Shown here piece by piece: positions 5,701 to 30,816 of a stretch of 64,000 nucleotides of DNA. The notes under the pieces are model-generated. The model saw only the letters and a list, made by a program, of their open reading frames with translations, did not search any database and was not told where the DNA came from. The stretch's first letter is position 1. Each line of letters starts with the position of its first letter. Source of the stretch: an uncultured delta proteobacterium (GTDB taxonomy: Bacteria; Myxococcota_A; Polyangia; Polyangiales; Houyiibacteriaceae); NCBI GenBank assembly GCA_963753395.1, contig CAVWBW010000009.1, positions 2,633 through 66,632 on the forward strand, in the 5' to 3' direction. The position numbers were made by a program, and so were the translations under genes.

Positions 5701-5868
5701 TCACTCCTGATCTGCGGTGCGATTTATGAGCTCGGCCAGCACTGCGTCTACGCCGGCTCCGCCGTCTTTCTGGTAGGCGCTCCAGAGCTTCTTCCATAGC
5801 GGAAGTACATCTTCGCCACCCTTCTGCTCCTTGAGCTGCCTCACGACAGCTTCGTTGATCCCTTCCAT
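5701..5868 (-). CDS. small acidic helical protein (55 aa)
   Basis: The hand translation is MEGINEAVVRQLKEQKGGEDVLPLWKKLWSAYQKDGGAGVDAVLAELINRTADQE*. A GGAGGAG motif precedes the ATG. It ends 5 nt before the ATPase start and is below the ORF-track length cutoff. Confidence 0.4.
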   Translation of the reverse strand: MEGINEAVVRQLKEQKGGEDVLPLWKKLWSAYQKDGGAGVDAVLAELINRTADQE

Positions 5869-11835: not shown

Positions 11836-11854
11836 GGGGGCTGACTCTAGACGA
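11711..11854 (-). repeat. segmental duplication copy A (amidohydrolase start plus about 20 nt upstream)
   Basis: Near-identical to 13432..13575, apart from a few substitutions and a 1-nt indel close to the ATG. Confidence 0.85.
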
Positions 11855-11883
11855 AATGCTGGCGTTTTGGGTTGTGAATGATG

Positions 11884-12036
11884 AGGTGCAGGCGCGTGTG
11901 GGGGCGCGACGTGCCTCCGCAGGTCACGCCGCGGCGCGGGTCGGTTTCGATCTCGGTGAGGGCGGCGAGGATGGCGACGTCGTTTTCTAGGCCCTTGAGG
12001 CCGGAGACGATGGGCCAGGTGATGATTCGTGAGCAA
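11884..12036 (-). repeat. R5: helicase-relic copy (ITWPIVSGLKGLENDVAILAALTEIETDPRRGV...LHLIIH)
   Basis: It matches R1, R6 and R7 at nt level and extends further 5' in gene sense than R1-R4. Confidence 0.8.
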
Positions 12037-12132
12037 GTGCTGGGGTCAGTGGTCGATGACGGGGTGTGAGGACGGTTTGCAACTGCCCAAGGTCGATCTT
12101 TGATATTAAATTTGGTATAGGGTGAATTGGTT

Positions 12133-12417
12133 ATGTGGCGGGTTGTCGAGGCGACTGGCATCGGGAGGCAACTCGGGCGCGCACCGAAGCAGGTGCAGGA
12201 GAAGTATGAGTTTTGGAGAAGCGTGGCGGAGCTCGATGGGCCGATGGGGCTTCAGCGGTTGCCGGGGTTTCGGGACCATGCGCTCAAGGGTGAGTGGAGG
12301 GGCGCGCGGTCGTCCGCACTATCCCGTCAGTGGCGGGTCATCTATGTGGTTGTCGGCGACGAGCTGACTGTGTTCGTGCTGGAGGTGAATCCTCATGACT
12401 ACCGGAAGAAAGACTAA
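12133..12417 (+). CDS. RelE/HigB-like toxin
   Basis: It reads MWRVVEATGIGRQLGRAPKQVQEKYEFWRSVAELDGPMGLQRLPGFRDHALKGEWRGARSSALSRQWRVIYVVVGDELTVFVLEVNPHDY. Confidence 0.8.
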   Translation: MWRVVEATGIGRQLGRAPKQVQEKYEFWRSVAELDGPMGLQRLPGFRDHALKGEWRGARSSALSRQWRVIYVVVGDELTVFVLEVNPHDYRKKD

Positions 12418-12688
12418 GGCGGCGCTCAAAGGGCGGTTCTCGCCAGCAAAGGTGCGGCGGCGGCTGTCGGTTGGGCAGTCCGTGCGCATCGCGCGAGAGC
12501 TCAATCAGCTCAGTCAGAACGAGCTTGCTCGGCTGACTCGGATTGCGCAGTCGACGATTTCGGCGATTGAGACGGACCGGGTGAAGCTCGGTGCGGAACG
12601 GGCGAAGACGCTCGCGCGGGCGCTCAAGGTGCATCCGGCGGTGCTGCTGTTTCCGGGCTGGCGAACGGAGGACGAGAGCGCGGCGTAG
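12395..12688 (+). CDS. XRE-family HTH antitoxin
   Basis: It contains SVRIARELNQLSQNELARLTRIAQSTISAIETDRVKLGAERAKTLARAL and overlaps the toxin gene by 23 nt. Confidence 0.85.
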   Translation: MTTGRKTKAALKGRFSPAKVRRRLSVGQSVRIARELNQLSQNELARLTRIAQSTISAIETDRVKLGAERAKTLARALKVHPAVLLFPGWRTEDESAA

Positions 12689-12695
12689 GGGCGTC

Positions 12696-12840
12696 GATGA
12701 GGCCTGCAGCCGTGTGTGCGCGCGACATGCCCACGTAGGCTCCGCCTCGGTGCCAGTCGGTTTCGATCTCGGTGAGGGCGGTGGGGATGACGACGTCGTT
12801 TTCTAGGCACTTCAAGCCGGAGGCGGTGGACCAGGTGATG
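12696..12840 (-). repeat. R6: helicase-relic copy (ITWSTASGLKCLENDVVIPTALTEIETDWHRGGAYVGMSRA...)
   Basis: It matches R1 and R5 at nt level. Similarity may continue to about 12900. Confidence 0.8.
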
Positions 12841-12899
12841 GTGTTTCTCTTCGTCGGCGCGCCGGGCTTTGAGGAGCAGGGCGGAGATCCGGCGCCTGG

Positions 12900-13331
12900 T
12901 CAGGCTTCGAGCATGTGCTTGATGTTCTCCATCGAGCTCTCGACGTTTCGCTGGTTTTGCTTCGAGATCAGGTGCTCGGCGAGCTTGCCGACAACCGGAA
13001 TCGGAATGGAGTACTGGACCTTCATCGTGAGCTTGGTGCCGCCTCCCTCTGGCTCGACGTCTGCAGCCCAGGTGCTCGACACCCCGCCCTGGCTTTCGGT
13101 GACCGTTCGGCGGTTGGGCACGTGCTCGATGGTCGTGCTCTGTCCTTTGAGCGGGATGCCCACCATCTTGAACGTCCAATGAAAGTGCCGGCCGACTCCG
13201 GGAGGGCCTTCCACCTCGGAGACCTCCATCATGCCTATCATCCATTCGGGGTCATTGAGTGGGTTGTCGATGTACTCGAATACCTTCTCAGCGGGTGCAT
13301 TGATGATGATGCTGTTCTCGATAGTTTCCAT
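12900..13331 (-). CDS. SRPBCC-superfamily (polyketide cyclase/START-like) protein
   Basis: It reads METIENSIIINAPAEKVFEYIDNPLNDPEWMIGMMEV...KLTMKVQYSIPIPVVGKLAEHLISKQNQRNVESSMENIKHMLE. GGAGG lies upstream of the ATG. Confidence 0.85.
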   Translation of the reverse strand: METIENSIIINAPAEKVFEYIDNPLNDPEWMIGMMEVSEVEGPPGVGRHFHWTFKMVGIPLKGQSTTIEHVPNRRTVTESQGGVSSTWAADVEPEGGGTKLTMKVQYSIPIPVVGKLAEHLISKQNQRNVESSMENIKHMLEA

Positions 13332-13384
13332 GGGTTGCCTCCGTTGGATGAGACAAGGTGACCATGGAAGGAGCGGTGGCGTCC

Positions 13385-13401
13385 ATACGTAATTCTTTCC
13401 T
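13385..13401 (-). promoter_or_regulatory. AT-rich motif AGGAAAGAATTACGTAT (gene-sense), site a
   Basis: It lies 53 nt upstream of the SRPBCC ATG. The same 17-mer occurs at 30892..30908 and its 10-nt core at 17571..17580, each in the same orientation relative to its gene. Confidence 0.45.
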
Positions 13402-13431
13402 CGGAATCCTCGCGGGAGAGCTCGCCCATGC

Positions 13432-13575
13432 GGCCGACGAAGTCGAGCAAGCGCGGGCTCCAGCCAAAGAGCTCGACCGCCACGCTGGCTTCTCGCGGAG
13501 TGGTGCGTGGGTCCCATTGGTGAACGTGCGAATCGATAATGGGAGGGGGAGACTCATGGGGCCTGACTCTAGACG
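13432..13575 (-). pseudogene. orphan 5' fragment of the amidohydrolase gene (duplication copy B)
   Basis: It reads MSL.. then a 1-nt deletion, then SHVHQWDPRTTPREASVAVELFGWSPRLLDFV, and diverges after that. It includes the same roughly 20 nt upstream of the ATG as copy A. Confidence 0.8.
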
Positions 13576-13972
13576 AGACTCTTGCGTCGCGGCGGGCCTA
13601 GCCGGAACAAAGGCACTCTCGGCGCGGCACGCGACGCGAGATCACGAGTCGTACCTCGAAACTTAGCTCTTGGAATGCGCCCGATGGGCTGAGAGAGCCC
13701 AATGAGCGAAGAGAGGATCTCGAACAGTTGGGGAGCGGGCCTTCATGCGCTTCACGCTAGCGTTCTTCCATCGCTTCACGACGGACGGAGGAGGGCGGTG
13801 ATTTCAGGCTTGCTCATGAGCTCGTCGTCCGTGTGTGCATCCACTGCGTGACTCGCTCGCACTGCGAAAATGCTGCGCGCCGTCGAGACGTTCGACCCAC
13901 TCGTTCCCAAGAGATTTCGCCGCTTGGCGCCTGGCATACAAGTTGCGTCGTGACGGTACCTAAGAGGTCGTC

Positions 13973-15718
13973 ATGTTGCGCAAATACGCTTTTCTGGTGG
14001 GTGTCCTAGTGGGGTTGTCGCTGCTGGCCGTCGTAGGCTGCAGCAATGACGGAGATGGTGAAGGCGGCGGCGAAGGAACGGCGCTCAGCCTGGACGGGGA
14101 GACCGCGATGCCCGCCACGGGCGGTGCGTCCGTTGCAGTCGATCGAGGCGTCGCGTTTTCGACCGTGATCTCGAGTATGCTCGCAGAGCTTGCCGTCGAC
14201 GCCCAATCGACTTCCGCAGCGGCGAAGATCAACGCTCCCTTGGAGATTTGTCCGGGAGGGGGTAGCGCGGTCCTCGACGGAGTGCTCGCAGGCAGCGAAA
14301 CGGCGTCACTCACTTTAATGGACTGCGTTGGCTCACCGCTTGGTGGCACGGCCAATGGAACACTACTGCTCGGAGATCTCACGGAAAGCTTTGTCGGCAC
14401 CACCCTCGAGGCCAGCGCCACCGCGTCGCTGGGCGGTCGAGGTGATAGCTATCCGGAATTCACGATCGATCCCAGCACCGTGCTCAGAGGCAACTTCGAG
14501 GTCCAAGCGGACATCACGCTGAGCTTCTCTCCCGAGATCACGGTGAGCCAAATCGACCTCGTGTTGGGACGTAGCGAGCCCGAACCGAGCAGTGACGACT
14601 GGATCCTCGTTGAAGATGAAGATGCAAGCGGAACGGAGTTGCGAGTGACGTGCTTCGAGATTTCCACGAGCATCGCCACTTCGCCATTCGCGATCAACTC
14701 CTTCCAGCCTCGGGGTGTTTTGGTTTTGGAGGGGGACGTCTACACGTTCAACGGCCCGGACATCGGTTTCGATGTCTCGGCTGGTAGTGCGATTCCCGTT
14801 TCCGGGACGATCGAGCTATCGAGCGGTGACCAGATGGGATGCGGCGAAGGTTCCGGAGATGGGTCGAGCGTGCAGGCAGAGCTCTACCAAGAAGGAGCCA
14901 CCACGTTCGTCAACGTGACGGCGACGGGCGCAGACGGGACGGTCTACGTATGCACTGAACAATGGGAGAACCTTCTCGCCACCCTGGGTGACCTCAACGC
15001 CTTCGAGCGCTGCCCGCCTGCTGTCGCAGGCGATGTGCTCACATGCTCCGAGGACGCCTTGCTGGACTTCAACGCCTATCTCGACCCGCTCATCGAGGTA
15101 CTCAAGCAGGTCGACAGCCCAGGGTCCGAAAACGACTTTCTCATCGACTGGACAAGCAGCGACGAAGCGGGGCTATTCGCGATCGGCGTCGACGCGGACG
15201 GCAGCGGAGGACCCGAGCGTGAGCTGTCCGGTAGGGTGACGCCCAAGGAACCCTGCTCGGGCGGTATGGAAAAAGACGACATCTGCATCCTGGAATGGAC
15301 CGTCAACATGAGGACGTCGTCCGCAGAGGAGGTCGCATATGGCCGCATCAGCGCTCTCGATTTCGGTGTCTCTCCTCTGACAAATACGAGCTCTCACCGA
15401 GTCCTGATCATCGACTTCGATCCGGATGATCCCGACAAGACCAACATCCAGATTGACCAAAGCAGCTTTTGCTCCATCGCCGTCAATCGATTTCAGATGC
15501 TCTGGCGGGGTGCAGACCCAGCGACCGGTTTTTCCGAAATGTACAACCTCGACATGGGTTTCGAAGCGTCCGTGCTGGGCGCGGCGACGGACAGTGGACG
15601 CGGCGACGTGATCTGGGGTAGCGGAACGGGCGCGGAGGCGACCATCACGTTCACGGTCGACGACGAGCGGTTCGACTGCGGTTTCGATGTGGACACGTTC
15701 GTAGTCTCCTGCCCCTGA
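13973..15718 (+). CDS. lipoprotein, hypothetical (581 aa)
   Basis: The signal and lipobox are MLRKYAFLVGVLVGLSLLAVVGC. The long ORF has an acidic, protein-like composition. The antisense ORFs over it are R/P-rich. Confidence 0.8.
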   Translation: MLRKYAFLVGVLVGLSLLAVVGCSNDGDGEGGGEGTALSLDGETAMPATGGASVAVDRGVAFSTVISSMLAELAVDAQSTSAAAKINAPLEICPGGGSAVLDGVLAGSETASLTLMDCVGSPLGGTANGTLLLGDLTESFVGTTLEASATASLGGRGDSYPEFTIDPSTVLRGNFEVQADITLSFSPEITVSQIDLVLGRSEPEPSSDDWILVEDEDASGTELRVTCFEISTSIATSPFAINSFQPRGVLVLEGDVYTFNGPDIGFDVSAGSAIPVSGTIELSSGDQMGCGEGSGDGSSVQAELYQEGATTFVNVTATGADGTVYVCTEQWENLLATLGDLNAFERCPPAVAGDVLTCSEDALLDFNAYLDPLIEVLKQVDSPGSENDFLIDWTSSDEAGLFAIGVDADGSGGPERELSGRVTPKEPCSGGMEKDDICILEWTVNMRTSSAEEVAYGRISALDFGVSPLTNTSSHRVLIIDFDPDDPDKTNIQIDQSSFCSIAVNRFQMLWRGADPATGFSEMYNLDMGFEASVLGAATDSGRGDVIWGSGTGAEATITFTVDDERFDCGFDVDTFVVSCP

Positions 15719-19464: not shown

Positions 19465-19668
19465 GTGCAGCTTCCGACGGCGCGAGTCCACCTACCGCTC
19501 AACAACGAGATCCAAAGAGTGGAGGTCGAGAGCAGTGGGGAAGCCGAGCAAAGGCAGGCTCGGGAGCGCTTTGAGGCGCGCTGGAATCGCTCGAACCAAA
19601 TCCGAACGGCGATTGCGATTGTGACGATGCTGCTGCTGGTCGTACTGTTGAGGCTCCGGGCCACTTGA
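19465..19668 (+). CDS. possible tail-anchored small protein
   Basis: The C-terminal helix is IRTAIAIVTMLLLVVLL. The start codon is uncertain and no strong RBS was seen. Confidence 0.3.
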   Translation: MQLPTARVHLPLNNEIQRVEVESSGEAEQRQARERFEARWNRSNQIRTAIAIVTMLLLVVLLRLRAT

Positions 19669-19758
19669 GACGCAGTGCCGACCCCACCTTTACCCATGAC
19701 CGTGGCCGCCCCGGCGGCCTCTGTTGCCAGCATGCTGAGTTGCAGATAAGGAGGACAG

Positions 19759-20211
19759 ATGGTGTACAACACATGGATCCTAGTGGCTCACGACGCGGGG
19801 GCGCGGGTCTTCGAAACCCACGGGCGCGGGACGGGGCTAGAGCTCGTGGAAGAGATTGAGCACCCGGAGGGGCGCGCACGGGATCGGGACATGGCTTCCG
19901 ACCGCCCTGGCCGTTCGTTTCGTAAGAACAGCGGTGACCCGAGTCGCGCGTCGATGAGCCAGAGCGAAGGGCCGCACGAGCGGGCGGTGTCCGACTTTGC
20001 GCGAGCCTTGGCCGAGAAGCTCAAAGACGCGCGCATGCAGAATCGATACTGGCGCCTGGTGCTCGTTGCGCCGCCCCGGTTCTTGGGTTTGCTGCGGTCT
20101 TCGCTGGACGGTCCGACGGCGAAGCTCGTGACGGCCTCGCTCGACAAAGACCTCGCAGCCGAGACGACGAGCGAGCTCGCGAAGCGCCTCGGCGAATTGA
20201 TTGCACTCTGA
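19759..20211 (+). CDS. host-attachment-protein family protein
   Basis: TAAGGAGG precedes the ATG. The sequence pattern is ILVAHDAGARVFE...DRPGRSF...ERAVSDFARALAEKL...RLVLVAPPRFLGLLR. Confidence 0.8.
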   Translation: MVYNTWILVAHDAGARVFETHGRGTGLELVEEIEHPEGRARDRDMASDRPGRSFRKNSGDPSRASMSQSEGPHERAVSDFARALAEKLKDARMQNRYWRLVLVAPPRFLGLLRSSLDGPTAKLVTASLDKDLAAETTSELAKRLGELIAL

Positions 20212-20256
20212 CGGCCACCGCCGAAGCGGCGGATAGCGAGGTCGAGCGGGTCGCTG

Positions 20257-21732
20257 CTAGCCGGCGCGGGAAGCCAGGGTTTGGAGAAAACGTAGCAACT
20301 CGACCATCACGGCTGTGTCGTGCTCGCAATAGGTGCGGAGCTGGGTTCTGAGATCCTCGCACTGGTCGTCGCTCAGCTCATCGGGGTGGCACAAGACGCT
20401 CTCCAAGAGATTCGAGGCGGCCATGCCGTCGGCGACGTCGAGCTCGTCGTAGCTCATCTCCGGGAGGAGCGCCGGGACGACGTTCTTGATGCTGAAGCTT
20501 CCGCGGAAGTCCGGGTGGTAGAAGTGGTTCTTGACTGCGACGAGTAGGTCTTGCGTTTTGTCGCGCGCTTCGAGCAGGGCGGCCGCGTGCTCGGGGGCGG
20601 CTTCAGCGAGCTCGGTGAGGCAGCGCTTTTCGACGCTGGCGTGCCAGGCGAGGATGGTGGCGGCGCCGTGCAAGGCCTCGACGACCGCTTGTGCGACGGC
20701 GGGTTGGGGGTCGCCCTGCCCTTCTGCGAGGTATGCGCTGTGGGTGAGCTCGCCGTTTTCGTGGAGGGTGTGGACGCTGAACTGCACGGGGACTGCGGTG
20801 AGCGGGCTGCAGCCGTTCCAGACGGGCAAGGCTGGGCCGACGGTTTCGAAGTCGAGCATGGCGATGGGGTAGCGGTAGGCGGCGAGGACTCCCTGCAGGC
20901 CTGGTTCGATGACGACCTTGTTCGCGACGACGGCGGCGCGGTGGCGCGCTTGTAAGGGCTTGAGCGGGAAGTCGCTTGGGATTTCCGGGATGGTTTCGAT
21001 GCCTCGTTCGCGGAGCTCCGCGAGGGCGCGGGCGCGGATGCCGTTGAGCTCTTCGATGGCGTGGTCGGGTGCGGGCGCGTGGCAGCGGGCGAGGAAGGGG
21101 CACTCGTAGGGGGATGTGCAGTGGGGGCCGGGGGCGACGTCGGGGAGCTCGCCGCTGAGCATGCGGATTTGGGCGGCGGCGTTTTCGGCAATGTCGTCGC
21201 GGAGCTCGGCGACCTCGGCGCTGATGTCGGCTCGGGTGAAGAGCGGGCCTTGGTCGGGGTGGCGGTGCTCGCCGTTGAGGTGCATGAGCTCGACGCGGGT
21301 GACCGGGAGGCCTGCGCGCTCGACGACGTGGGTTTGGACGGCGGCGTCGGCGAAGTGCTGCGGCTTGACGGACTTGGTGGCTTTGACTTCGGTGAGAACC
21401 CAGCCGTCGGGCTCTTTGCTGAGGGCGTCGACGGCGACGAAGATGTTGTCTTCGAAGAAGGAGGCTTCGAGGATGGCGGTGGCGCCTTCTTCGATTGCAA
21501 GGCGGGTGGCTTCGACGGCGTGGTGGGGGCGCCGATAGTCGAGCTCGATGAGTGTGGCGCCGGGGAACTCGTGGCGGGCGCGCTCGCCTACGCGGTTGCC
21601 CATGTCGAAGAGGGCTTGGAGGGAGGCGTCGGGCGTGAGCTCGGGGGCGCGGGGCTCGTGCGTTTTCCACCAGAGGAGGCGGTGGCATTGGAGGCCGGCG
21701 GTGTACTTCGATTTGGAGAGGCGTGGGGGCAC
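20257..21732 (-). CDS. DUF2779-like protein: Cas4/RecB-like PD-(D/E)xK plus a DnaQ-like exonuclease half
   Basis: The N-terminus is LSKSKYTAGLQCHRLLWW. A Cys trio (HCTSPYECPFLARC) gives a 4-Cys cluster pattern. EVK and MLDFET (DxE) motifs are present. It starts 10 nt after the sbcC stop. Confidence 0.75.
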   Translation of the reverse strand: MPPRLSKSKYTAGLQCHRLLWWKTHEPRAPELTPDASLQALFDMGNRVGERARHEFPGATLIELDYRRPHHAVEATRLAIEEGATAILEASFFEDNIFVAVDALSKEPDGWVLTEVKATKSVKPQHFADAAVQTHVVERAGLPVTRVELMHLNGEHRHPDQGPLFTRADISAEVAELRDDIAENAAAQIRMLSGELPDVAPGPHCTSPYECPFLARCHAPAPDHAIEELNGIRARALAELRERGIETIPEIPSDFPLKPLQARHRAAVVANKVVIEPGLQGVLAAYRYPIAMLDFETVGPALPVWNGCSPLTAVPVQFSVHTLHENGELTHSAYLAEGQGDPQPAVAQAVVEALHGAATILAWHASVEKRCLTELAEAAPEHAAALLEARDKTQDLLVAVKNHFYHPDFRGSFSIKNVVPALLPEMSYDELDVADGMAASNLLESVLCHPDELSDDQCEDLRTQLRTYCEHDTAVMVELLRFLQTLASRAG

Positions 21733-21742
21733 AATGGGAAGC

Positions 21743-24700
21743 CTACGGCAAAACGAACTTGGCGCTGCTGCCGGCTTTGCCTGCGGTGACTTGGAGGCGG
21801 ACGTCGATTCTCTCTTTCAAGTCGGCGACGTGAGAGATGACGCCTACGAGGCGGCCGCTTTGTTGGAGGTCGATGAGGGTGTTGATGGCGAGGTCGAGGG
21901 CTTCTGGGTCAAGGCTGCCGAAGCCTTCGTCGACGAAGACGGTGTCGAGGCGCACGCCGCCGGTGTGGGATTGGACGGTGTCGGCGAGGCCGAGTGCCAG
22001 AGCGAGGGCGGCTTGGAAGCTTTCGCCGCCCGAGAGTGAGGAGACGTGGCGGGTCTTGCCGGTGTAGGCGTCTTCGACTTCGAGGTCGAGGCCGCCGGCG
22101 TGACGGGCGTCCTTCTGGTCGCTCGCGCGGAGCAAGCGGTAGCGGCCTTTGCTCATTCGGTGGAGCCGCTCGCTCGCGGAGATGAGAACGTCGTCGAGGA
22201 GCGCGGCCAGGACGAAGCGTTGGAAGCTCATCTTCTTGGCGTTCCTGCCCTGGGCCACGTTGGCGAGGTCGCCCACGACGCCGTAGCTGGCCTCGGCGGC
22301 GTCGAGACCCTCGTCGCGTTCGGCGAGCTTCTTCTTCAAGGCGTCGATGGACTTGAGCTCCTGCTTGGCGCTGAGCAGGGCGGCCTCCGACTCTTCGCGC
22401 GCCGCCTTCGCGTGCTGGTGTGCCTCCCTGAGCGAAGTGAGCTCCGGGCGCTGGAGCTCCTTGGTGTGTTCCTGCGCCTGACGAAGGAGTGTGGCGGCCT
22501 CGCTGCGCGCGGTGTCGAACTGGGTGACCTCGACTTTGAGAGCCTTGCGGGCGGGCTCCTGCAGGCGGGCCTCGAGGAAGGACTCCTCCGATTCGAAGGC
22601 GGCGTCGGCGAGGCGGCGCTTCCACTCCGCCGCTTGCTGCTCGTGTTTGCGGAGCGCTCCGGCGAGGGTGGTCTTCCTGCTCGTGTCTTCCGAGCTGGCT
22701 GCTGCGTGAGCGGCCACGGCCTTTTCGTAGGCGCTTCCGGCCTCGTCGAGCTCGGTTTGGAGCGCGGTGATTTGGGTGTTGAGAGCGCCGATTGCGGCGT
22801 CTAGCGCGCCTGCTTCGCGGTACGCCTCCGGAACGGCGTTCTCTGCTTGCTCTAGGCGGCCGTTGGCTGCGTTGAGCTCCGCCTCGGCGGTTCGCAACTC
22901 GGTGGAGGCGGCGTTGAGCTTCTGTTCGGCTTCTTTGAGCTTGGCGACGAGCGCATTGAGCGACGCTTTGAGCTTCGTCGCCTGCTCGGCGCGCTGCTCT
23001 TCGTTCGTCTTTTCCTGCTTCACTTCGGACAAGGCCGATTCGAGCTCGCTTAGCGGCCGGTCGGCTGCGTCTTCGAGGGTTCGACGGAGGTTGGTCTCGG
23101 CCTCCGTTTGGACGGCCAGCTCGGTTTGCGCGTCTGAGTAGTGCTTCTGCGCCTCGTCGCGGGCCGTTTCCGACGCCTTGGTGGCCGCTGCGGCATCGTC
23201 GACGTGCTGGTCCGTGGGAATTTCGTGCGCGGATGCTGCGGGCGCGGGGTGTTCGAGAGAGCCGCACACCGGGCAGGGCTCGCCGTCTTCGAGCTTGGTC
23301 GCCAAGACCGACGCTTGGCCGGCGAGGCGCGTGCGCTCCAACTCGCCCAAGGTGACGCGCGCGGTGGACAGCGCTTGCTCGGCTGCCTCTAGCTTCGCCT
23401 TCCAAGCAGCCAGCAACGACTCTCCGGCCTGCTTTTTCTTGCCGACCGAATCGAGCTCCGTACGGGCGTCGAGCCGTGTCTCCAGGGCTTGGATGCGCGT
23501 GCCAATGCCTTCGAGGTCTTTGGCGAGCGCGATGTTCGCGTCGTACTGATGTTTCGTCTCGGTCTCGCCTCTTCGGAGCTTGTCGAGCTGGGCCTCGGAC
23601 TTGTCGACGGCCCCGCGCTTCTCTTCCTCGCGCTCTTTGGCCGTTGCCACCCCCTGACGGGCATTGCCTAATGCGTCGAGTTTTTCGCGATGGCTTTCGA
23701 GCTTGGTGCGCTCCGACTCGAGACGCTTTCGCTCGGGCTCCGCGGCCTTCGCGGCGTCGTGGCGCGCCTTGGCGGTTTGTAGCGCAGTCGTTGCCTTTGT
23801 TAGGGCCTCTGCGGCTTCGTGGTGTCGTGTCTGTGCATCGGCGGCCTCTTTTGCGAGCGTCGACGAGTGCTTGTGGAGGTCTTCGAGGCCGGCGGCTCGC
23901 GTCGCGGCTTCGAGCTCCGTTCGCTTCTCCTCGATGGACGGAGCCTTTGCGTCGAGGCCTTCGAGTGCGCCCTTGTGCGTTTCGAGGGCATTGAACTTCG
24001 CCTCGACCTCCTCGGCCTTCGCCAAGATCGCGTGAGCTGCGGTTTCGTCGGCCTTGAGCTTTTTGAGCTTGGGTTCGAGCTCGGTCATCGCCTTCTGCTG
24101 ATTGGCGTGCAGGGAGTCGAGCTCCTCGCGTGTCTCGCAGTCTTTTGTGCCGAGCAAGGTTTGCTCGTCGCGCTGAAGCGCTTGGATCTGCTTTTTGAGC
24201 TCGGCCGCCCGACTCTTCAGCGCGTCCTCGATGCGGCGGAACATGCGGGTGTCGAAGAGTGCGGACAGGATTTCCTCTCGCTCTTGGGACTTCGCGAGGA
24301 GGAGCTGACGGAACTTCCCTTGGGGGAGCATGATGACCTGGCGGAACTGGTCGCCTCGGAAACCGAGGATCTTGGCGACCTCGGTGGCGACGTCTTTGTT
24401 CTTGGCCGCGAGCAAGTCGCGCTCGGCGCCGTCTTCGTCGATGGTCCAGAGCGTTGCGGAGGGCTGGGTGACGGTGGTGCCCTCCCCGCGTTGCTTGGGT
24501 CGCTCTTGCCTCGGTGTGCGGGAGACGCGGTAGCGCTTCTCGCCGACGCGGAAGTCCAAGGTGACGCGGGTTTCGAGCGTGGGCTCGGCCAAGTCGGAGC
24601 GGAAGCCTTCGCCGTCGCGGTCGTCGCCCGAGGACTCGCCGTAAAGTGCGAAGCTGATGGCGTCGAGCAGGGTGGTCTTGCCGCCGCCGGTCGGACCGTG

Positions 24701-24799
24701 AATCAAGAACAAGTGATTGTCGCCGAGCTCATCGAAGTTGAGCGTCTGGCAGCCGGCGTAGGGGCCGAAGGCTTCCAAGGTGAGCGTGATGGGCCTCAT
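21743..24799 (-). CDS. sbcC: exonuclease SbcC (Rad50-like ATPase)
   Basis: It starts MRPITLTLEAFGPY. Walker A is GPTGGGKTT, the hook is PCPVCGSLEHP, the signature is LSGGESF and Walker B is VFVDEGFGSLD. Its start overlaps the sbcD stop (ATGA). The upstream part of the track ORF is an R/P-rich artefact. Confidence 0.95.
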   Translation of the reverse strand: MRPITLTLEAFGPYAGCQTLNFDELGDNHLFLIHGPTGGGKTTLLDAISFALYGESSGDDRDGEGFRSDLAEPTLETRVTLDFRVGEKRYRVSRTPRQERPKQRGEGTTVTQPSATLWTIDEDGAERDLLAAKNKDVATEVAKILGFRGDQFRQVIMLPQGKFRQLLLAKSQEREEILSALFDTRMFRRIEDALKSRAAELKKQIQALQRDEQTLLGTKDCETREELDSLHANQQKAMTELEPKLKKLKADETAAHAILAKAEEVEAKFNALETHKGALEGLDAKAPSIEEKRTELEAATRAAGLEDLHKHSSTLAKEAADAQTRHHEAAEALTKATTALQTAKARHDAAKAAEPERKRLESERTKLESHREKLDALGNARQGVATAKEREEEKRGAVDKSEAQLDKLRRGETETKHQYDANIALAKDLEGIGTRIQALETRLDARTELDSVGKKKQAGESLLAAWKAKLEAAEQALSTARVTLGELERTRLAGQASVLATKLEDGEPCPVCGSLEHPAPAASAHEIPTDQHVDDAAAATKASETARDEAQKHYSDAQTELAVQTEAETNLRRTLEDAADRPLSELESALSEVKQEKTNEEQRAEQATKLKASLNALVAKLKEAEQKLNAASTELRTAEAELNAANGRLEQAENAVPEAYREAGALDAAIGALNTQITALQTELDEAGSAYEKAVAAHAAASSEDTSRKTTLAGALRKHEQQAAEWKRRLADAAFESEESFLEARLQEPARKALKVEVTQFDTARSEAATLLRQAQEHTKELQRPELTSLREAHQHAKAAREESEAALLSAKQELKSIDALKKKLAERDEGLDAAEASYGVVGDLANVAQGRNAKKMSFQRFVLAALLDDVLISASERLHRMSKGRYRLLRASDQKDARHAGGLDLEVEDAYTGKTRHVSSLSGGESFQAALALALGLADTVQSHTGGVRLDTVFVDEGFGSLDPEALDLAINTLIDLQQSGRLVGVISHVADLKERIDVRLQVTAGKAGSSAKFVLP

Positions 24800-25947
24800 G
24801 CGCCGCCCTCGCCCTTGGCTTGGAGAAGCGCGGCGACGACTTCGTTGAACAGCTCTTCGCCGCCGTCGATGAGCTCGTTGCCGGTGACCTCTTGGTAGAA
24901 GTCCTTGTAGAGGTCGACCTCGGAGCGCTTGAGGTGGTCGCCGCCTTTGAGCTCGGCGGACTGGCCGGATTGAAGGCCGGGGCGTTCGAGGTGCAGGACG
25001 TTGGGATACACCTGGCGGAGCTTGCCGATGGCGTCGAGGATGGCCTTCCGGTCGGTGAGGCGAAGCAGCAAGTAGTCGTCCCTGGGCGCGCCGTCGGTGG
25101 GGCCTTTCAGCAGCTCGTCGAGCTCGCCTTCGATGACGCGGACGTCGCGGCGCGGCGAGAGCTCGATGCGTTCGGTGTCGACGCTGCCGTCCGGGCCGAC
25201 CTCGACGAGGGTGACGGACTTGCGGTGGTCGACCTCGGAGAAGGAGTACTTGAGAAGCGAGCCCGAGTAGTGGATGCCGTCGCCGACTTGTTGGGGGCGG
25301 TGGAGGTGGCCGAGGGCTGTGTAGTGGAAGCCATCGAAGCAATGGGCGCCGACCTCGCCGGTGCCGCCGACGGTGAGCGGGCGCTCTGATTCGGACTCCT
25401 TGCCTCCGGTGACCCAGCAGTGGCCGATGGCGACGGAGCGCGACTTCGGGGGGAGCTTGGCTCGGAGCTCGGAGACGAGCGCGAGGACGGACGCCTCGTG
25501 GCCATGGAGCGAGTCGTCGGCCAAGTGGAGGCGCACCGCGGCGGGGTCGGCGTAGGGAACCGGGCAGAAATGCACAGCTCCGTGCGCGTCGGACAGGACT
25601 ACCGGGTCGACGGCGGAGCTCAGCGGCCCGTAGACGTGGAAGCCGCCGGCGGTGAGCAGGCGGTTGCCGAAGCCGAGACGCTCGGGGCTGTCGTGGTTGC
25701 CGGCAATCATGATGACCGGGATTTCAGCGCCGAGGACGAGACGCTCGAGGACCTCGTTCAGGAGGCTGACTGCGGGCGCGGGGGGCACGGCTCGGTCGTA
25801 AACGTCGCCGGCGATGACGACGGCGTCGACGGCTCGTTCTTTCGCGAGGGAGACGAACTGGTCGAGGACGTGGGCTTGGTCTTCGAGGAGTGAGACGTTG
25901 TGGAACTGGCGGCCGAGGTGCCAATCGGCGGTGTGGAGGAATCTCAT
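24796..25947 (-). CDS. sbcD: exonuclease SbcD (Mre11-like phosphoesterase)
   Basis: It has MRFLHTADWHLG, GDVYD and GNHD motifs. Confidence 0.95.
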   Translation of the reverse strand: MRFLHTADWHLGRQFHNVSLLEDQAHVLDQFVSLAKERAVDAVVIAGDVYDRAVPPAPAVSLLNEVLERLVLGAEIPVIMIAGNHDSPERLGFGNRLLTAGGFHVYGPLSSAVDPVVLSDAHGAVHFCPVPYADPAAVRLHLADDSLHGHEASVLALVSELRAKLPPKSRSVAIGHCWVTGGKESESERPLTVGGTGEVGAHCFDGFHYTALGHLHRPQQVGDGIHYSGSLLKYSFSEVDHRKSVTLVEVGPDGSVDTERIELSPRRDVRVIEGELDELLKGPTDGAPRDDYLLLRLTDRKAILDAIGKLRQVYPNVLHLERPGLQSGQSAELKGGDHLKRSEVDLYKDFYQEVTGNELIDGGEELFNEVVAALLQAKGEGGA

Positions 25948-25969
25948 CGGGGGTGTGCGGCTGCTGCGG

Positions 25970-26743
25970 TCATGAGGCCGGTTGGGATCTTCTGGCGACC
26001 CAGATCCATCCTTCGCGCTTCGCGAGGCTCAGGTCGTTCGGTGGGACGGCTTCGCCCTTCAGAAAGTCCAGGCCCGCGCACACGCATAGCACGGCATCGA
26101 GGGCGTGGTCGGTGCGAAGCATCTGCTCCGTTCCGCGCGCGTCGAGCGAAACTCGTTTTGCGATTTCGGCCGCGAGCTCGTGGCGAAGGGCGGCAGCCGG
26201 GTCTCCGGATCCTTTGTAGCCGGAGTGAGGCAGGTTCCGTGCGGCCAAGGTGCCAGCCGGATACACCTCAATCGCCGCGACGCCTTCGATTCGTGCTGGC
26301 TCCCACGCGAGCTCGATGGGTGCGTCGAGCTGCTTCCTCAAGCGGGCGAGGAATGTGAGTGCCGCATGCGCGGTTCGAGCGATTCGGTCGCTACCGACGT
26401 CGAGCGGGCGTTTGCGGAGGCGTTCGGCGACGGCGTCGTCGGTCGCCCTTCGGAACATTTCATTCGGAAGGTGGTGGAGGGGGTCGCCTGCGTGGTGGGC
26501 ATGGAGGGACTCGCCGAGCTGCGCGGGCCAACCGAGGGGAGCGTCGAGGGCCAAGAGGGTCGGCGTGCTTACCCATGAGGCGACTTGCTCGTCGATGGCA
26601 GGCCAGGTCTTGCCGATGGTGACTTCTTGAATCCGAGGATGGCCTTCGGTCATCGTGCATAGCGCGAGGCCGACTTTCTTAGCGTCGGTGGCACAGTCGA
26701 TGCCGATGACTCGGGTTTCGGGGGGCACTACCAACGTCGCCAC
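25970..26743 (-). CDS. DUF429-like predicted RNase H-fold nuclease
   Basis: It has VIGIDCATDAKKVG, LLALDAPLGWP, FRRATDDAV and DALDAVLCVCAG patterns. It ends 22 nt before the sbcD start. Confidence 0.55.
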   Translation of the reverse strand: MATLVVPPETRVIGIDCATDAKKVGLALCTMTEGHPRIQEVTIGKTWPAIDEQVASWVSTPTLLALDAPLGWPAQLGESLHAHHAGDPLHHLPNEMFRRATDDAVAERLRKRPLDVGSDRIARTAHAALTFLARLRKQLDAPIELAWEPARIEGVAAIEVYPAGTLAARNLPHSGYKGSGDPAAALRHELAAEIAKRVSLDARGTEQMLRTDHALDAVLCVCAGLDFLKGEAVPPNDLSLAKREGWIWVARRSQPAS

Positions 26744-26869
26744 CGGCCGAACATATCGGAGGGAGGCGACGGTACCAAGCGCGATTGAATCGCGCGCCGA
26801 GAATAGGCGGCGCGGGCTCTTGTTTCGCGACGCATCAAGACGCGATGCGGTGTGCGTCGACGATGGGGT

Positions 26870-27400
26870 TCATTGGGTTCCGTTCTTGGGGACCTGTTGC
26901 TCGAGCCATCGCGTGAGAAACGCGTACTCCGTGGCGCGCCCGCGCTGGAGCTCTTTTTCGATGCTTGACTCGATGAGGCCGCCGAGGCCGAAGAGCTTGG
27001 CTTCGACGCTGAAGCGGTCGGTGCGGCGGCAGTGGCCTTCGTCGGAGGGGTCGATGCGGACCGTGCCGTGCATGGTGACGGCGTCTTTTCGGGGCTTGCT
27101 CTTTGGGTCGAGGTTTGCCGGCTGCACCATCCGCCATGTCCACTCGTTCGCGGTGCGGTCGAGGGTGCCGTGCTCTTCGTAGGCGAAGCTTTCGCCGATG
27201 AGCTTTGCGACCGGGGCGGGGAGCTTCATCTTGGGGACGATGCGGAGCTTGCGGGACGACTCGCCAATCTCGAGGACCTCAAAGGCGTGGGAGTCGAGCT
27301 CGTCGAGGTAGAGGGTGCGGAGGTAGGGCTCGTTTAGAAACGACGCCCAGACGGTGTCGGGGGTGCAGGGGAAGACGGCAGATGTAGTGGAGGTTTTCAT
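26870..27400 (-). CDS. DUF2505-like SRPBCC-fold protein
   Basis: A 176-aa ORF. The end, ...KLFGLGGLIESSIEKELQRGRATEYAFLTRWLE, is family-like. Confidence 0.65.
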   Translation of the reverse strand: MKTSTTSAVFPCTPDTVWASFLNEPYLRTLYLDELDSHAFEVLEIGESSRKLRIVPKMKLPAPVAKLIGESFAYEEHGTLDRTANEWTWRMVQPANLDPKSKPRKDAVTMHGTVRIDPSDEGHCRRTDRFSVEAKLFGLGGLIESSIEKELQRGRATEYAFLTRWLEQQVPKNGTQ

Positions 27401-27417
27401 GTGGGGTGGCCGCCTCT

Positions 27418-28140
27418 TCAGCGCGCCGCCGCGTGCATCTCGTCGTAGACTGTCGCCAGGTCTTCGAGCGCCGCTGCACAGTCACCTTCGAAGGAGGAGC
27501 CGTGCATTACCGCGAGTACGCTTGGCTGCAACGCGGCCAAAGAGCGAATGGTTTTTCCGGTGGTCGGGGTGAGACACGTCGCGTTGAATGCAGCCTCAGC
27601 CGCCTTGGCCGGGCCCACGATGTCGTTCTCTGTGAGGGCCGACTCGTTGCCGAGCTGGGTGAAGAGGTCCCCGCAGAAGAGCGTGCGCGTCCCTTGCTCG
27701 AACAGCACTCGCGCATCCCAGCAATGGGGGACGTGTGGCGTGTCGAAATGACGCACGCGTTTGCCGCCGAGGTCTAGCACCTCAGCGTTTTGCAGCGGGC
27801 GGGGGGGGCGGTCGGCCAGGTCGTTGACGGAGACCATGCAACCCACTTCGCCCTGGGCCACGATGGCGTTCGGAGCGAGCTCCAGCCATTGGTTCATGGA
27901 GCCGCACTCGTCGGATTCGACGTGGCCAAACGCAATCCAGCGGAGCGACTTTTCCGGGATCAGGGCGGCAACCGCAGCCCGGACGGCCGAAAACATGGCG
28001 CGCGGCCCGGTGTGAAACAGCAGCGGCTCGTCGGCGCGGACGAGGAACTGGTTAAATGTGAAGCCGGTCGGACCGACCTCAGGGACGAAGGTGCTGATCC
28101 GGAAGATGTCGGGGGCGATTTCGTCGGTGGTGGTTGGCAT
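27418..28140 (-). CDS. MBL-fold (di-iron ODP-like) metallo-hydrolase
   Basis: It contains MPTTTDEIAPDIFRIS, FGHVESDECG (H-x-E-x-D) and FDTPHVPHCWD. Confidence 0.75.
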   Translation of the reverse strand: MPTTTDEIAPDIFRISTFVPEVGPTGFTFNQFLVRADEPLLFHTGPRAMFSAVRAAVAALIPEKSLRWIAFGHVESDECGSMNQWLELAPNAIVAQGEVGCMVSVNDLADRPPRPLQNAEVLDLGGKRVRHFDTPHVPHCWDARVLFEQGTRTLFCGDLFTQLGNESALTENDIVGPAKAAEAAFNATCLTPTTGKTIRSLAALQPSVLAVMHGSSFEGDCAAALEDLATVYDEMHAAAR

Positions 28141-28250
28141 GGCCTTCTCCTCGTGCTCCGGGCGAACACCCACGAGACAGTACGCCCCACCACAAGAGGA
28201 TGCACCGGCGAAAGGGGTGCGAGCACAGAATGCGGTCTTTTTGCGCCATG

Positions 28251-28856
28251 CTAGCCGAGGCGCGCTCTCGCAACCAAGCGCACGACGCTCGCCAACCCGG
28301 TGTGGTAGAGGCCTTCGCGAATCTCGGCTTCGACCTGCTCGAGCTCGAGGATCTCGAGATCGGAGAAGTCCTCTCGCAGCTCGTCCACCGCGTAGAGGAG
28401 TTGCTCGTTGGGTGGGCCTCCGGTGCCGTAGGCGAGCTGCTCCTTGCTGTAGGCCTCGAGGAACAGGTGGCCTCCCGGCTTCAGGGCCGACGCGAGCTTT
28501 CGATGCACCGCGCGCCGCATGCTCTCGTGCTTGTGCGTGAAGATGAGCGCGACGGCGTCGTAGGCGTTGGGTTCGATGTGGGCGGTTTCGTAGTCGGCGA
28601 CCTCATAAGTGATGTGCACGCCGTGGCGCTCGGCCAGGCGCAGCGCTTTTTCGCGGGCGGCTGCGCTGAAGTCGAACGCGTCGATGCTCCAACCTCGCCG
28701 GGCTGCGTATACGGCGTTTCGCCCTTCCCCTTCGGCTGGAAGAAGAAGGCGCGCAGGGGTCGGGAGCCGGTCGAGGCAGGCTTTGAAGAACGCGTTCGGC
28801 TCTTGGCCGTAGGCGTATTCGTCGGCGGCGTATCGCTCTTCCCACATGTCTTTCAT
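28251..28856 (-). CDS. class I SAM-dependent methyltransferase
   Basis: It starts MKDMWEERYAADEYAYGQEPN. Motif I-like sequence is LLLPAEGEGRNAVYAA. Confidence 0.85.
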   Translation of the reverse strand: MKDMWEERYAADEYAYGQEPNAFFKACLDRLPTPARLLLPAEGEGRNAVYAARRGWSIDAFDFSAAAREKALRLAERHGVHITYEVADYETAHIEPNAYDAVALIFTHKHESMRRAVHRKLASALKPGGHLFLEAYSKEQLAYGTGGPPNEQLLYAVDELREDFSDLEILELEQVEAEIREGLYHTGLASVVRLVARARLG

Positions 28857-28935
28857 GGCGGCCTCTTGGTAGGGAACGTGGGGTGTGGCGGCGGTTGTGC
28901 AAGGGGGTGGCACGAACGGCGACGCGAATCGCTGA

Positions 28936-30816
28936 CTACTTGTGTTTGCCGCTGACGGTCGCGGAGCCGCGGCATTCCCCGGTGTTCTGGGACGGCGGGA
29001 TCAAGGTGCCGTAGGAGAAGGTCACACTGTAGTACCAGTCCGATTGCGCCGTCATGCTCTCGACATCCTCGGACGTCTCGCCCGTAATGGTGGTGATATT
29101 CTGACACGAGATGAGCTCGCAGTTGACCGCATCACCGCAGACGTCGTACGCGTAGAACATGTACTCGCACTCCGCGAGGGCGGTGCTGTCGGTCGCGAGT
29201 TGGAAATCACCCGAGGTTTCGTCCCAGCTTCCGCTGAGCCGCGACCCAGTGTCGGGGACGTAGGTGGATTGAATGTAGTTCGTGCCCTTCCCGCCGGGCC
29301 AGTCGACGTGGATCTCGAAGCTCGAGAACGGGTCTTCCTCCCACCAGGTTCCGCCCGCGTAGCGGCACTCTTCGTACTGCCTTGTCGGAGTCAGAACCCA
29401 GTTGCCTGCTATGCCCGACTCGACCTTCACGGGGAGGCTCGCCTCCAGGACGTCGCAGACGTCTTCGTCTTTGCTGTACTCGAGCTTGGCCAAAACCTTG
29501 GTCTCGCCCGCTTTCACTCCGCGCACGGAGCTCTGCTGGCCCTCGGCCTTTGCGACTTCCGCCGTGGCCGGATCGAGGCTCTCCCACGCCACCTTGCTGA
29601 GGTCGAGAGGCGGCCAGCCAGCAGGAGGTCGGCCGGGCAGAAGCTCCGCCATGGCTTCGACATCGGCTACTTCGTCGCGGTCGAGCGTCATGCTCGTCGG
29701 TTCGAGAGTCATCGGGTCGAAATTGGAGCTGATGTCCACTTCTACCTCCTCGGTGGGCATCTTGGGGTCGCGGCTGATGGAGGCGGTGAGCGTCGTGTGG
29801 CCCGCCGCGTGCGCCGTGAGGCTATCGCTCGCGTCGACGGTGGCGACCTCGCCGCGCTCCGTCGTCCAGCGTGGATACATCGGGACTGGGCCGAACACTG
29901 TCTTGCCGCCGCTGGTGCCGCTGAGGGTGACCTCGACTTCGTCTCGGAGATTCTTCGTTTCGCACGCGTACATCTCCAAGCTGCTGGGATCCATTTCGAT
30001 GTCGAGCTTCATGTTCTTTGGGCACTCGGGGGTGAGGTCGCCAGTGGTGTGCGTCTGGGGTGTTGGGGCCTTGCATGCCGGATAGGCGACCGTCACGTCC
30101 GAGCCCACGACTTGGCATTCACCGAAGGTCACATCGACGCCCGATGCCTCCACATCGATGAGTTGCTCCATGCAGCACTTGCAGTTCGACGCACACTGCT
30201 TTCGTTCCTCGCGCAACAGCAAGCAACAGCCGCCTTGCTGTTCGTCCCAGAGCTCCTTGGCGTACCAGGCGCAGAAGTCGTCGACACCGGGATAGGTCTT
30301 GCAAGTGCGGCAGCTAGCTTCGACGTGCTCGTACAAGACCTCGATCCAGGTCTTGGAAAAGTGCTGCAGGTTGCGGACCTCGACGACTTCTCTTGCACCG
30401 TCGTAGCTCAAGTCGGTGGGTGCAATCCATTGGGCCTCGTTGGCGAAATCGAATTCGACCAGAATCGGAATCTCTCCTGGCTCGAGGGGACGCACGGGGA
30501 CGGTGGCGGTAACGGGTTTGGCAAATGTGAGGCCGTCCGGCTCTGCCGAAAAGCCCCCGAGGCAAGCCTTCGCGTGCGACTGAAACACCGTTGTAGCGAG
30601 AACTGCGTCGGCATCCGCGCAGTCGACTTTCGTCACCTCAATCTCGACCGCTTCGGTGACGGCGCCGGGGGGAATGTCGAGAACGACGCCGCTAGGGAAG
30701 GTCAAGACCCCGCCTGACGAATCCACGGTCTGCACACTGCTCGCCGAGTCACCGCAGCCGAATGACGCGACGCTGCTCAATAGACAACAGCAAACGAACA
30801 CGATGAAGGAACGCAT
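28936..30816 (-). CDS. lipoprotein with Ig-like (Big_2-type) segments
   Basis: The signal and lipobox are MRSFIVFVCCCLLSSVASFGC. It has an intact 626-aa ORF and a Cys-rich middle region. Confidence 0.85.
   Translation of the reverse strand: MRSFIVFVCCCLLSSVASFGCGDSASSVQTVDSSGGVLTFPSGVVLDIPPGAVTEAVEIEVTKVDCADADAVLATTVFQSHAKACLGGFSAEPDGLTFAKPVTATVPVRPLEPGEIPILVEFDFANEAQWIAPTDLSYDGAREVVEVRNLQHFSKTWIEVLYEHVEASCRTCKTYPGVDDFCAWYAKELWDEQQGGCCLLLREERKQCASNCKCCMEQLIDVEASGVDVTFGECQVVGSDVTVAYPACKAPTPQTHTTGDLTPECPKNMKLDIEMDPSSLEMYACETKNLRDEVEVTLSGTSGGKTVFGPVPMYPRWTTERGEVATVDASDSLTAHAAGHTTLTASISRDPKMPTEEVEVDISSNFDPMTLEPTSMTLDRDEVADVEAMAELLPGRPPAGWPPLDLSKVAWESLDPATAEVAKAEGQQSSVRGVKAGETKVLAKLEYSKDEDVCDVLEASLPVKVESGIAGNWVLTPTRQYEECRYAGGTWWEEDPFSSFEIHVDWPGGKGTNYIQSTYVPDTGSRLSGSWDETSGDFQLATDSTALAECEYMFYAYDVCGDAVNCELISCQNITTITGETSEDVESMTAQSDWYYSVTFSYGTLIPPSQNTGECRGSATVSGKHK

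Follow-up and report, generated by a model that had tools for sequence, protein, structure and literature searches.

An sbcD-sbcC pair between DUF429 and DUF2779 nuclease genes is probably a species-specific juxtaposition and not a conserved system

In a 64,000-nt stretch of contig CAVWBW010000009.1 from an uncultured delta proteobacterium (the window; coordinates are positions within it, and L-numbers such as L085 and L142 denote the loci or contigs with which it was compared), the genes for the two subunits of the SbcCD nuclease lie between genes for two other predicted nucleases. Based on the list of open reading frames (ORFs) and on a reading of the junctions, the gene order on the minus strand is DUF429, sbcD, sbcC, DUF2779 (Table 1), with a 22-nt gap between DUF429 and sbcD, a 4-nt ATGA overlap in which the sbcC ATG at 24799 overlaps the sbcD stop codon, and a 10-nt gap between sbcC and DUF2779. 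This packing is as a first-pass annotation of the same DNA had described it.

SbcD matches PF00149 (Metallophos; 3.6e-13) and PF12320 (SbcD_C; 2.8e-16) in Pfam, passes the cut-off of NCBIfam TIGR00619 (174 bits, cut-off 77.65), and its translation holds the phosphoesterase motifs DWH, GDVYD, GNHD, and GHLH. SbcC has the Pfam domains AAA_23 at residues 6 to 216 and SbcC_Walker_B at residues 899 to 975, with Walker A (GPTGGGKT), hook (CPVCG), signature (LSGGE), and Walker B (VFVDEGFG) motifs, and it shows the split ABC head and the long coiled coil with a CxxC zinc hook. Its score against TIGR00618, 303.7 bits, is under the curated cut-off of 478.5, and the protein is therefore assigned to SbcC by its Pfam domains and motifs and by its partner sbcD. 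Subfamily scores below cut-off are usual for fast-evolving coiled-coil proteins such as SbcC. The order of sbcD and sbcC, their overlapping stop and start codons, their domain layout, and their sizes are those of the bacterial two-gene SbcCD operon in the nearest relatives; L138, L140, and L141 have the same sizes of 383 and 1018 aa and the same 4-nt overlap. The head of SbcC also gives partial PADLOC matches to LmuB (6e-19), PbeC, and DndD. The LmuB match reflects a Rad50/SMC head shared with Lamassu, which is a likeness at superfamily level only; unlike Lamassu, the window has a full SbcC together with SbcD, and neither LmuA nor LmuC. PADLOC v2 found no known anti-phage system complete in the cluster, only partial superfamily matches. 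Judging from these motifs and domains, SbcCD would most likely have the activity typical of its family, that of an ATP-dependent nuclease for hairpins and DNA ends.

The assignment of the outer genes to DUF429 and DUF2779, proposed in the first-pass annotation from the letters and translations, holds at the level of profile hidden Markov models (HMMs), and AlphaFold models searched with Foldseek concur. The DUF429 protein has PF04250 as its sole Pfam match (E = 1e-18, 68.2 bits, cut-off 23). Its AlphaFold model has a predicted local distance difference test (pLDDT) score of 91.8 and matches RuvC, RuvX, and YqgF with Foldseek E values of 7e-4 to 1e-2; NurA is not among the top 50 matches. Six acidic residues (D67, D102, D115, E159, D216, and D226) are invariant, and a seventh, D16, almost so. 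DUF429 has been placed in RNase H-like clade D (PMC3985635), and the fold matches agree with this. From the model, the protein is most likely a RuvC/YqgF-like endonuclease. It also has a partial match to the PADLOC candidate PDC-S44 (2e-10).

The DUF2779 protein matches PF11074 over residues 292 to 414 (E = 2e-32, 112.7 bits, cut-off 23.3). Its N-terminal half is matched weakly by TIGR03491 (TM0106 RecB-like; 2.4e-7, below cut-off) and by PADLOC Cas4 (1.5e-4). Across 48 homologues, four cysteines (C16, C205, C211, and C217), D102, E115, and K117, and D294, E296, Y468, and D472 are invariant. A family-profile sequence search of PDB gave nothing informative, and fold comparison was used instead: the AlphaFold model (pLDDT 94.6) matches Cas4 (7mi5, 4r5q), RecE, lambda exonuclease, MGME1, ExoI, the PolB exonuclease, and DinG. 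The invariant residues and the fold matches bear out the first-pass reading of a Cas4/RecB-like four-cysteine half joined to a DnaQ-like DxE half, and by sequence and model the protein is a fusion of a Cas4-like four-cysteine PD-(D/E)xK half with a DEDD exonuclease half. This two-domain fusion was described previously (PMC3985635, as family F.17 with DUF83; PMC13621843). The DUF2779/PF11074 proteins of the MMSYN1_0389 and UU173 family have the same architecture, with conserved D...ExK and DEDD(y) residues, and the TM0106 RecB-like layout is related. The Mycoplasma protein lacks the four Fe-S cysteines (PMC13621843), whereas the window protein retains all four. We predict that it is most likely a dual exonuclease, with a 5'-3' activity in the Cas4-like, Fe-S half and a 3'-5' activity in the DEDDy half. 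DUF2779 proteins are widespread and uncharacterised, and in the minimal Mycoplasma cell the DUF2779 protein is quasi-essential. Catalytic motifs are intact in the translations and alignments of all four proteins of the cluster, and none of the four stands out from the known family to which it belongs.

What is unusual is the position of sbcD-sbcC. The three loci with the closest DUF2779 genes (L085, L086, and L087) carry the methyltransferase, DUF429, and DUF2779 genes on one strand, with the last two adjoining and without sbcDC. Nucleotide identity to the window is 86 to 89% for DUF2779, 73 to 80% for DUF429, and 83% for the methyltransferase gene, and the spacer between DUF429 and DUF2779 is 1380 bp in L085, 370 bp in L086, and 424 bp in L087. 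In blastn comparisons with these loci, window positions 26721 to 25994 and 21731 to 20303 match and nothing between them does. Junction alignments show that similarity ends no more than ~25 nt from the DUF429 stop codon and begins again at the start codon of DUF2779, an ATG in L085 and L087 and a GTG in the window. The spacers of the relatives are not homologous to one another and hold no sbcDC remnants detectable by tblastn. Based on the breakpoints at both gene ends and on the relatives without sbcDC, we conclude from these alignments that the ~4.26-kb sbcD-sbcC segment is an indel between two otherwise neighbouring genes. The most parsimonious direction would be a gain, by insertion or relocation, in the lineage of the window, because one event suffices for a gain while loss needs many independent events that left no remnants. 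DUF429 homologues with 60 to 77% amino acid identity occupy the same syntenic position in relatives that lack sbcDC.

There are no direct or inverted repeats flanking the 4.26-kb segment, and no integrase or transposase gene lies within ~10 kb of the cluster. Insertion as a transposon or an integron cassette was rejected, since flanking repeats are lacking and the 10- to 22-nt gaps are too short for attC-like sites. A foreign composition of sbcDC was likewise rejected: G+C content at third codon positions (GC3) is 0.82 to 0.88, against a background of 0.78±0.05, which lies at the top of the host range or slightly over it. This composition neither supports nor excludes horizontal transfer; it means that the donor or intragenomic source would be compositionally similar or the event not very recent.

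A survey of related loci gives no sign that the four-gene order is conserved. The same order was found only in L142 (ENA ERZ25039603, contig_21744), which is 99.5% identical to the window in nucleotide sequence over 20.7 kb and whose DUF429 protein is 98% identical to the window copy. By this identity L142 is a sibling strain and hence no independent evidence of conservation. A chimeric or artefactual assembly was rejected as the origin of the arrangement, since L142 is an independent assembly with the same order and Logan contig P0121 carries an identical intact SbcD. L142, which corresponds to window positions 16000 to 36742, differs from the window by 10 single-base indels, of which one breaks the sbcD frame and four break that of sbcC, while three in DUF2779 compensate one another and the flanking genes are intact. 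The sbcDC frameshifts may be either incipient decay or long-read consensus errors in a strain-heterogeneous region.

Seen from DUF2779, none of 53 metagenome loci with relatives of 38 to 87% amino acid identity has SbcC or SbcD, and three long contigs with relatives of 76, 61, and 52% identity have unrelated neighbours. Among 105 ORFs neighbouring the DUF2779 relatives, the commonest Pfam families are methyltransferase, epimerase, PNPOx-type, and LysR, and the SbcC and SbcD families are not among the 25 families listed for these ORFs. In Myxococcales bacterium SG8_38 (L002 and L003, 10001 to 12555) the DUF2779 protein is 61% identical to that of the window, its gene has a 4-nt overlap with the start of a patatin-like phospholipase gene, and PemK/RHH toxin-antitoxin genes lie close by. 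In L004 (1 to 11479) the 52%-identical DUF2779 gene lies ~600 bp past a type I restriction-modification (R-M) operon whose last gene is YgjP-like; a single small ORF on the opposite strand separates the operon from DUF2779, and transposase genes follow DUF2779. The sbcDC pair of L140 and L141 directly follows the same kind of type I R-M/YgjP-like operon, and AbiEi and SocA_Panacea genes are near, so that this region resembles a defence island.

Seen from sbcDC, the set comprises 86 loci: the best 80 among 185,579 species genomes (SbcD identity 43 to 57%) plus metagenome contigs (64 to 84%). The 80 species-genome loci come from Gammaproteobacteria, Betaproteobacteria, Bacillota, and other phyla, and in nearly all of them sbcC adjoins sbcD. 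DUF429 and DUF2779 are present at 0 of the 86 loci, as determined by tblastn and by clade HMMs run on six-frame ORFs, and neither is among the 25 commonest Pfam families of the ORFs nearest to sbcDC. Thus, in contrast to the SbcCD operons of its relatives, the window pair stands between two other nuclease genes, and, in contrast to other DUF2779 genes, that of the window stands immediately downstream of sbcC, in this one species. At the closest non-sibling locus (L149; SbcD 84%) DUF429 is not upstream; the contig of the next (L139; 79%) is too short for any flanking gene. An OLD-family nuclease gene (AAA_15/AAA_21 plus TOPRIM) is upstream in L138 (971 to 7317; 74%), another metallophosphoesterase gene is upstream in L150 (66%), and in L140 and L141 (1 to 17800; 64%) sbcDC lies between the type I R-M system and an OLD-family nuclease gene. 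The statement in the first-pass annotation that sbcCD usually forms a two-gene operon is broadly true, with the qualification that AddB, RecC, or PDDEXK_1 genes follow sbcDC in 2 to 3 of 68 loci. Altogether, a shared four-gene adjacency is absent from the 53 metagenome DUF2779 loci, the 86 sbcDC loci, and 3 distinct DUF429 contexts, and a literature search found no paper linking DUF2779 or DUF429 to sbcCD. The proposal of an undescribed four-gene module for DNA-end processing or against foreign DNA is therefore not supported: in relatives, sbcCD does not keep these genes as neighbours.

The surroundings of DUF429 are variable in gene content in other ways as well. L143 keeps the flanking genes (amino acid identity 77% for DUF429; 90% for ODP, 89.5% for the methyltransferase, and 94% for Host_attach), and after DUF429 it carries small ORFs and a sulfatase gene. 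L146, L147, and L148 have DUF429 (72% amino acid identity) and FMO (94%), and their positions 10972 to 15559, equivalent to window positions ~19700 to 25970, are taken up by two toxin modules, PIN/HTH and PemK, and by the gene for a 926-aa ClpB-like AAA+ protein that also has a PCRF (release-factor) domain. Such a slot suggests a recurrent cargo site downstream of DUF429 in this lineage. ODP, DUF2505, the 150-aa Host_attach gene, and DUF429 itself are each present in some relatives and absent from others. The Host_attach gene is 94 to 100% conserved in L142 and L143 and is lacking in L086, where window position 20303 corresponds to 5658 and window positions 19661 to 19593 correspond to 5711 to 5782, only ~50 nt farther on. 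By this alignment it is another small indel gene at the locus.

Tight spacing is also not specific to the nuclease genes. The block upstream of DUF429 (26870 to 30816) contains four co-directional genes, none of them for a nuclease, that are equally packed, with gaps of 126, 17, 77, and 22 nt, and the boundary of the four-gene cluster is arbitrary given these four further genes. Near the cluster, a transcript boundary is suggested at one place only, a palindrome at 26793 to 26814 that has no U-tract on the minus strand; it is weak as a boundary, since terminator-like sites are just as numerous in the region as expected from shuffled sequence. A sigma-70 promoter scan of the region gave 0 promoter-like sites; scans of this kind are not informative in this phylum. 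The four genes could plausibly be co-transcribed, because the 22- and 10-nt gaps leave no room for intergenic promoters, and the transcription unit may exceed them, as the methyltransferase, ODP, DUF2505, and 626-aa protein genes lie upstream on the same strand.

Table 1. Features of the sbcD-sbcC locus (positions in the window) and of plasmid DUF2779 sets (positions in the named loci)
Feature	Position	Strand	Description
DUF429 gene	25970-26743	-	257 aa; predicted RNase H-fold nuclease, RuvC/YqgF clade; Pfam PF04250
sbcD	24796-25947	-	383 aa; Mre11-type nuclease subunit; Metallophos + SbcD_C
sbcC	21743-24799	-	1018 aa; Rad50-type ABC ATPase, coiled coil, CPVC zinc hook; AAA_23 + SbcC_Walker_B
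DUF2779 gene	20257-21732	-	491 aa, GTG start; predicted Cas4-like four-cysteine PD-(D/E)xK and DEDDy 3'-5' exonuclease halves; PF11074
sbcD-sbcC segment with a few junction bases	21733-25995	-	~4.26 kb; blastn and junction alignments
DUF2505 gene	26870-27400	-	Upstream, co-directional; Pfam label via identical L142 gene
ODP/metallo-beta-lactamase-like gene	27418-28173	-	Upstream, co-directional; Pfam label via identical L142 gene
S-adenosylmethionine (SAM) methyltransferase gene	28251-28913	-	Upstream, co-directional; Pfam label via identical L142 gene
626-aa Big_2/ZU5-like protein gene	28936-30816	-	Upstream, co-directional; Pfam label via identical L142 gene
GC-rich palindrome	26793-26814		In the 126-nt spacer upstream of DUF429; terminator-like scan and sequence reading
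150-aa baeRF_family12/Host_attach gene	19759-20211	+	Convergent with DUF2779, closes the cluster downstream; ORF and Pfam
Compact plasmid DUF2779 sets	L167 6848-11462; L168 6733-11467; L151 3495-7476; L170 6517-10536; L180 4574-8584; L152 4911-8340		

Based on the breakpoints, the relatives without sbcDC, and the survey, we consider it probable that the DUF429-sbcD-sbcC-DUF2779 order is a species-specific juxtaposition and not a conserved system. In a Polyangiales-like (Myxococcota) lineage, DUF429 and DUF2779 would be separate co-directional neighbours in an accessory stretch of variable gene content, and the sbcD-sbcC pair would have come to occupy what is a 0.37- to 1.4-kb spacer in relatives. 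The event would have left 22 and 10 nt at the junctions and removed any native DUF2779 promoter. Since there is no room for an intergenic promoter, we infer that DUF2779 is read through from sbcC or from further upstream, which would make this a newly formed operon. Any cooperation among SbcCD, DUF2779, and DUF429 would then be a by-product of co-expression; nothing shows that they work as one machine.

Several observations weigh against this explanation. An insertion that falls exactly between two nuclease genes and keeps both frames is improbable if it was random. The sbcDC genes are not compositionally foreign, and the direction and source of the event are inferred from parsimony only. Moreover, sbcDC and DUF2779 occur together on plasmids. 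In PLSDB, 31 records carry a distant DUF2779 gene (27 to 34% identity), of which we inspected the contexts of 26, and 7 of the 31 also have sbcDC (6 read, 1 inferred as a near-duplicate). Because SbcD is found on 145 of 72,556 PLSDB records, independence would lead one to expect ~0.06 records shared with DUF2779, a figure uncorrected for relatedness and replicon size; the shared records reduce to two lineages of one phylum, Campylobacterota. This co-occurrence hints that sbcDC and DUF2779 may be co-selected.

The first of these lineages is represented by five Arcobacteraceae megaplasmids (L157, NZ_MK715471.1 58822 to 73461; L159; L160; L162; L163), which have the co-directional order sbcD, sbcC, variable cassette, DUF2779, variable helicase or AAA gene, and dgt, with RelA/SpoT upstream on the opposite strand; the near-duplicate record also belongs to this family. 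These blocks resemble defence islands. The cassettes between sbcC and DUF2779 are QatABCD, SIR2 with DUF87 (HerA) and DUF6602, a STAND/NACHT NTPase, or WYL with unknown genes, and a second cargo slot, from DUF2779 to dgt, holds genes for large proteins of helicase or AAA type. As in the window, sbcD, sbcC, and DUF2779 follow one another in this order and orientation, and the genes on either side of DUF2779 vary. In contrast to the window, however, the block is on plasmids and not on a chromosome, its proteins are ~28 to 32% identical to those of the window, DUF429 is absent, and unrelated defence genes spanning 2.7 to 8.5 kb come between sbcC and DUF2779. The plasmid sbcDC and DUF2779 genes may simply be backbone genes that flank an insertion hotspot, of which a literature search found no account. 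The second lineage is Hydrogenimonas pISO32_1, in which WYL, sbcD-sbcC, integrase, and DUF2779 genes lie within ~10 kb, with sbcDC and DUF2779 within ~3 kb. The DUF2779 neighbours on Selenomonas pSRC1, considered as a third SbcCD-like case, proved to be a classical AAA+ protein and a small phosphoesterase and were not counted.

Other plasmids have compact sets around DUF2779 (Table 1). Plasmids of Rhodoferax, Diaphorobacter, and Sphingobium carry an IetA-like double AAA+ ATPase, DUF2779, and a WYL regulator, a Helicobacter plasmid has a ClpB-like AAA ATPase with DUF2779, and Aliarcobacter butzleri has a PDDEXK_4 nuclease (PADLOC PDC-S26), DUF2779, and WYL; the PDC-S26 type is also found on Arcobacter p82. 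These sets may be undescribed NTPase-nuclease defence candidates. The remaining plasmid DUF2779 records have ordinary metabolic, toxin-antitoxin, or insertion sequence (IS) neighbours.

One possible explanation for these associations is that SbcCD, DUF2779, and DUF429 each act as nucleases on foreign DNA and gather at variable loci without forming a complex, so that the window would be a chromosomal case of the sbcDC-DUF2779 association seen on plasmids, possibly with the same substrates, linear or hairpin-ended invader DNA. The Arcobacteraceae blocks, with a defence cassette and a dGTPase gene co-directional with sbcD-sbcC and DUF2779, are consistent with this, as are the pISO32_1 cluster and the occurrence of DUF2779 with IetA-like AAA+, WYL, and PDC-S26 on plasmids rich in toxin-antitoxin and IS genes. 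Closer to the window, the nearest sbcDC relatives stand beside OLD-family nucleases, type I R-M, and AbiEi, the DUF429 protein partially matches PDC-S44, and PIN and PemK toxin modules occupy the equivalent site of L146 to L148. However, the neighbours of DUF2779 in the clade of the window are mostly metabolic or regulatory with few that are defence-like, and at the 80 loci from species genomes the genes next to sbcDC are diverse, mostly of housekeeping type. The plasmid cases come from those two lineages of one phylum, with unrelated cassettes that separate the genes, perhaps as backbone plus hotspot, and DUF429 is in none of the plasmid DUF2779 loci. PADLOC v2 has no DUF2779 family, a set of 50,697 phage records gave no match to DUF2779, and 7 IMG/VR loci with DUF2779 show no sbcDC. 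We therefore regard this explanation as possible but unlikely.

A narrower version, which we consider doubtful, is that SbcCD and DUF2779 are a loosely linked, recurrent pair directed against foreign DNA that was assembled independently here and on the Campylobacterota plasmids. SbcCD would sense or open hairpin or free ends of invader DNA and DUF2779 would degrade both strands, and on the plasmids the pair would frame a hotspot that captures Qat, SIR2-HerA, and STAND cassettes. Co-selection of SbcCD and DUF2779 in foreign-DNA regions is a modest possibility, and as a proposal it differs from, and is much weaker than, a four-gene machine.

Such a machine, in which SbcCD opens or clips ends, DUF2779 resects both strands, and DUF429 cleaves branches in a coupled reaction, appears highly improbable. 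The operon-like spacing with its ATGA overlap, the apparently intact catalytic residues with complementary predicted activities, and the precedent of AddB, RecC, or PDDEXK_1 after some sbcDC pairs are all compatible with it. A further precedent is Bacillus subtilis, in which sbcDC follows addAB; a literature search for an addAB-sbcDC operon gave nothing. The limitation of the arrangement to one species weighs heavily against a machine, however, and the nearest relatives keep DUF429-DUF2779 without SbcCD, so that neither depends on SbcCD; on the plasmids, unrelated cassettes come between sbcC and DUF2779. The first-pass annotation had likened the cluster to the mre11-rad50-herA-nurA operon, which is conserved across thermophilic archaea. 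The likeness consists in a Mre11/Rad50-type pair clustered with extra nucleases, one of them RNase H-like, and it does not go further: according to Pfam, the four proteins and those of the adjacent genes include no HerA-type hexameric ATPase, nor is there another helicase or translocase of that kind, DUF429 has a RuvC/YqgF-like fold and is not of the NurA family, and the gene order of the window is not conserved. The analogy thus falls away with the absence of both HerA and NurA.

Finally, repeated deletion of sbcDC in relatives, from a cluster of four genes that was ancestral, would fit the very clean junctions in the window, the host-like composition of sbcDC, and the concentration of 5 of the 10 single-base indels over 20.7 kb in sbcD and sbcC of L142, which could be incipient decay, but it has very little probability, because it requires many independent losses, the spacers are mutually non-homologous and without sbcDC remnants, the nearest SbcD homologues are in other contexts, and the L142 indels may be consensus errors, given the identical intact SbcD in Logan contig P0121.

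The juxtaposition that we favour carries a caution, which is that tight same-strand packing of genes with suggestive functions can come from one recent insertion and need not indicate a system. It also offers a clean natural example of the birth of an operon: the incoming pair replaces the sequence that lay upstream of its new downstream neighbour, and that neighbour is then presumed to depend on read-through. If sbcDC and DUF2779 are indeed co-selected in regions that resemble defence islands, this would give DUF2779 its first functional context, and a role of the bacterial Mre11/Rad50 complex in immunity against mobile DNA would become a testable question.

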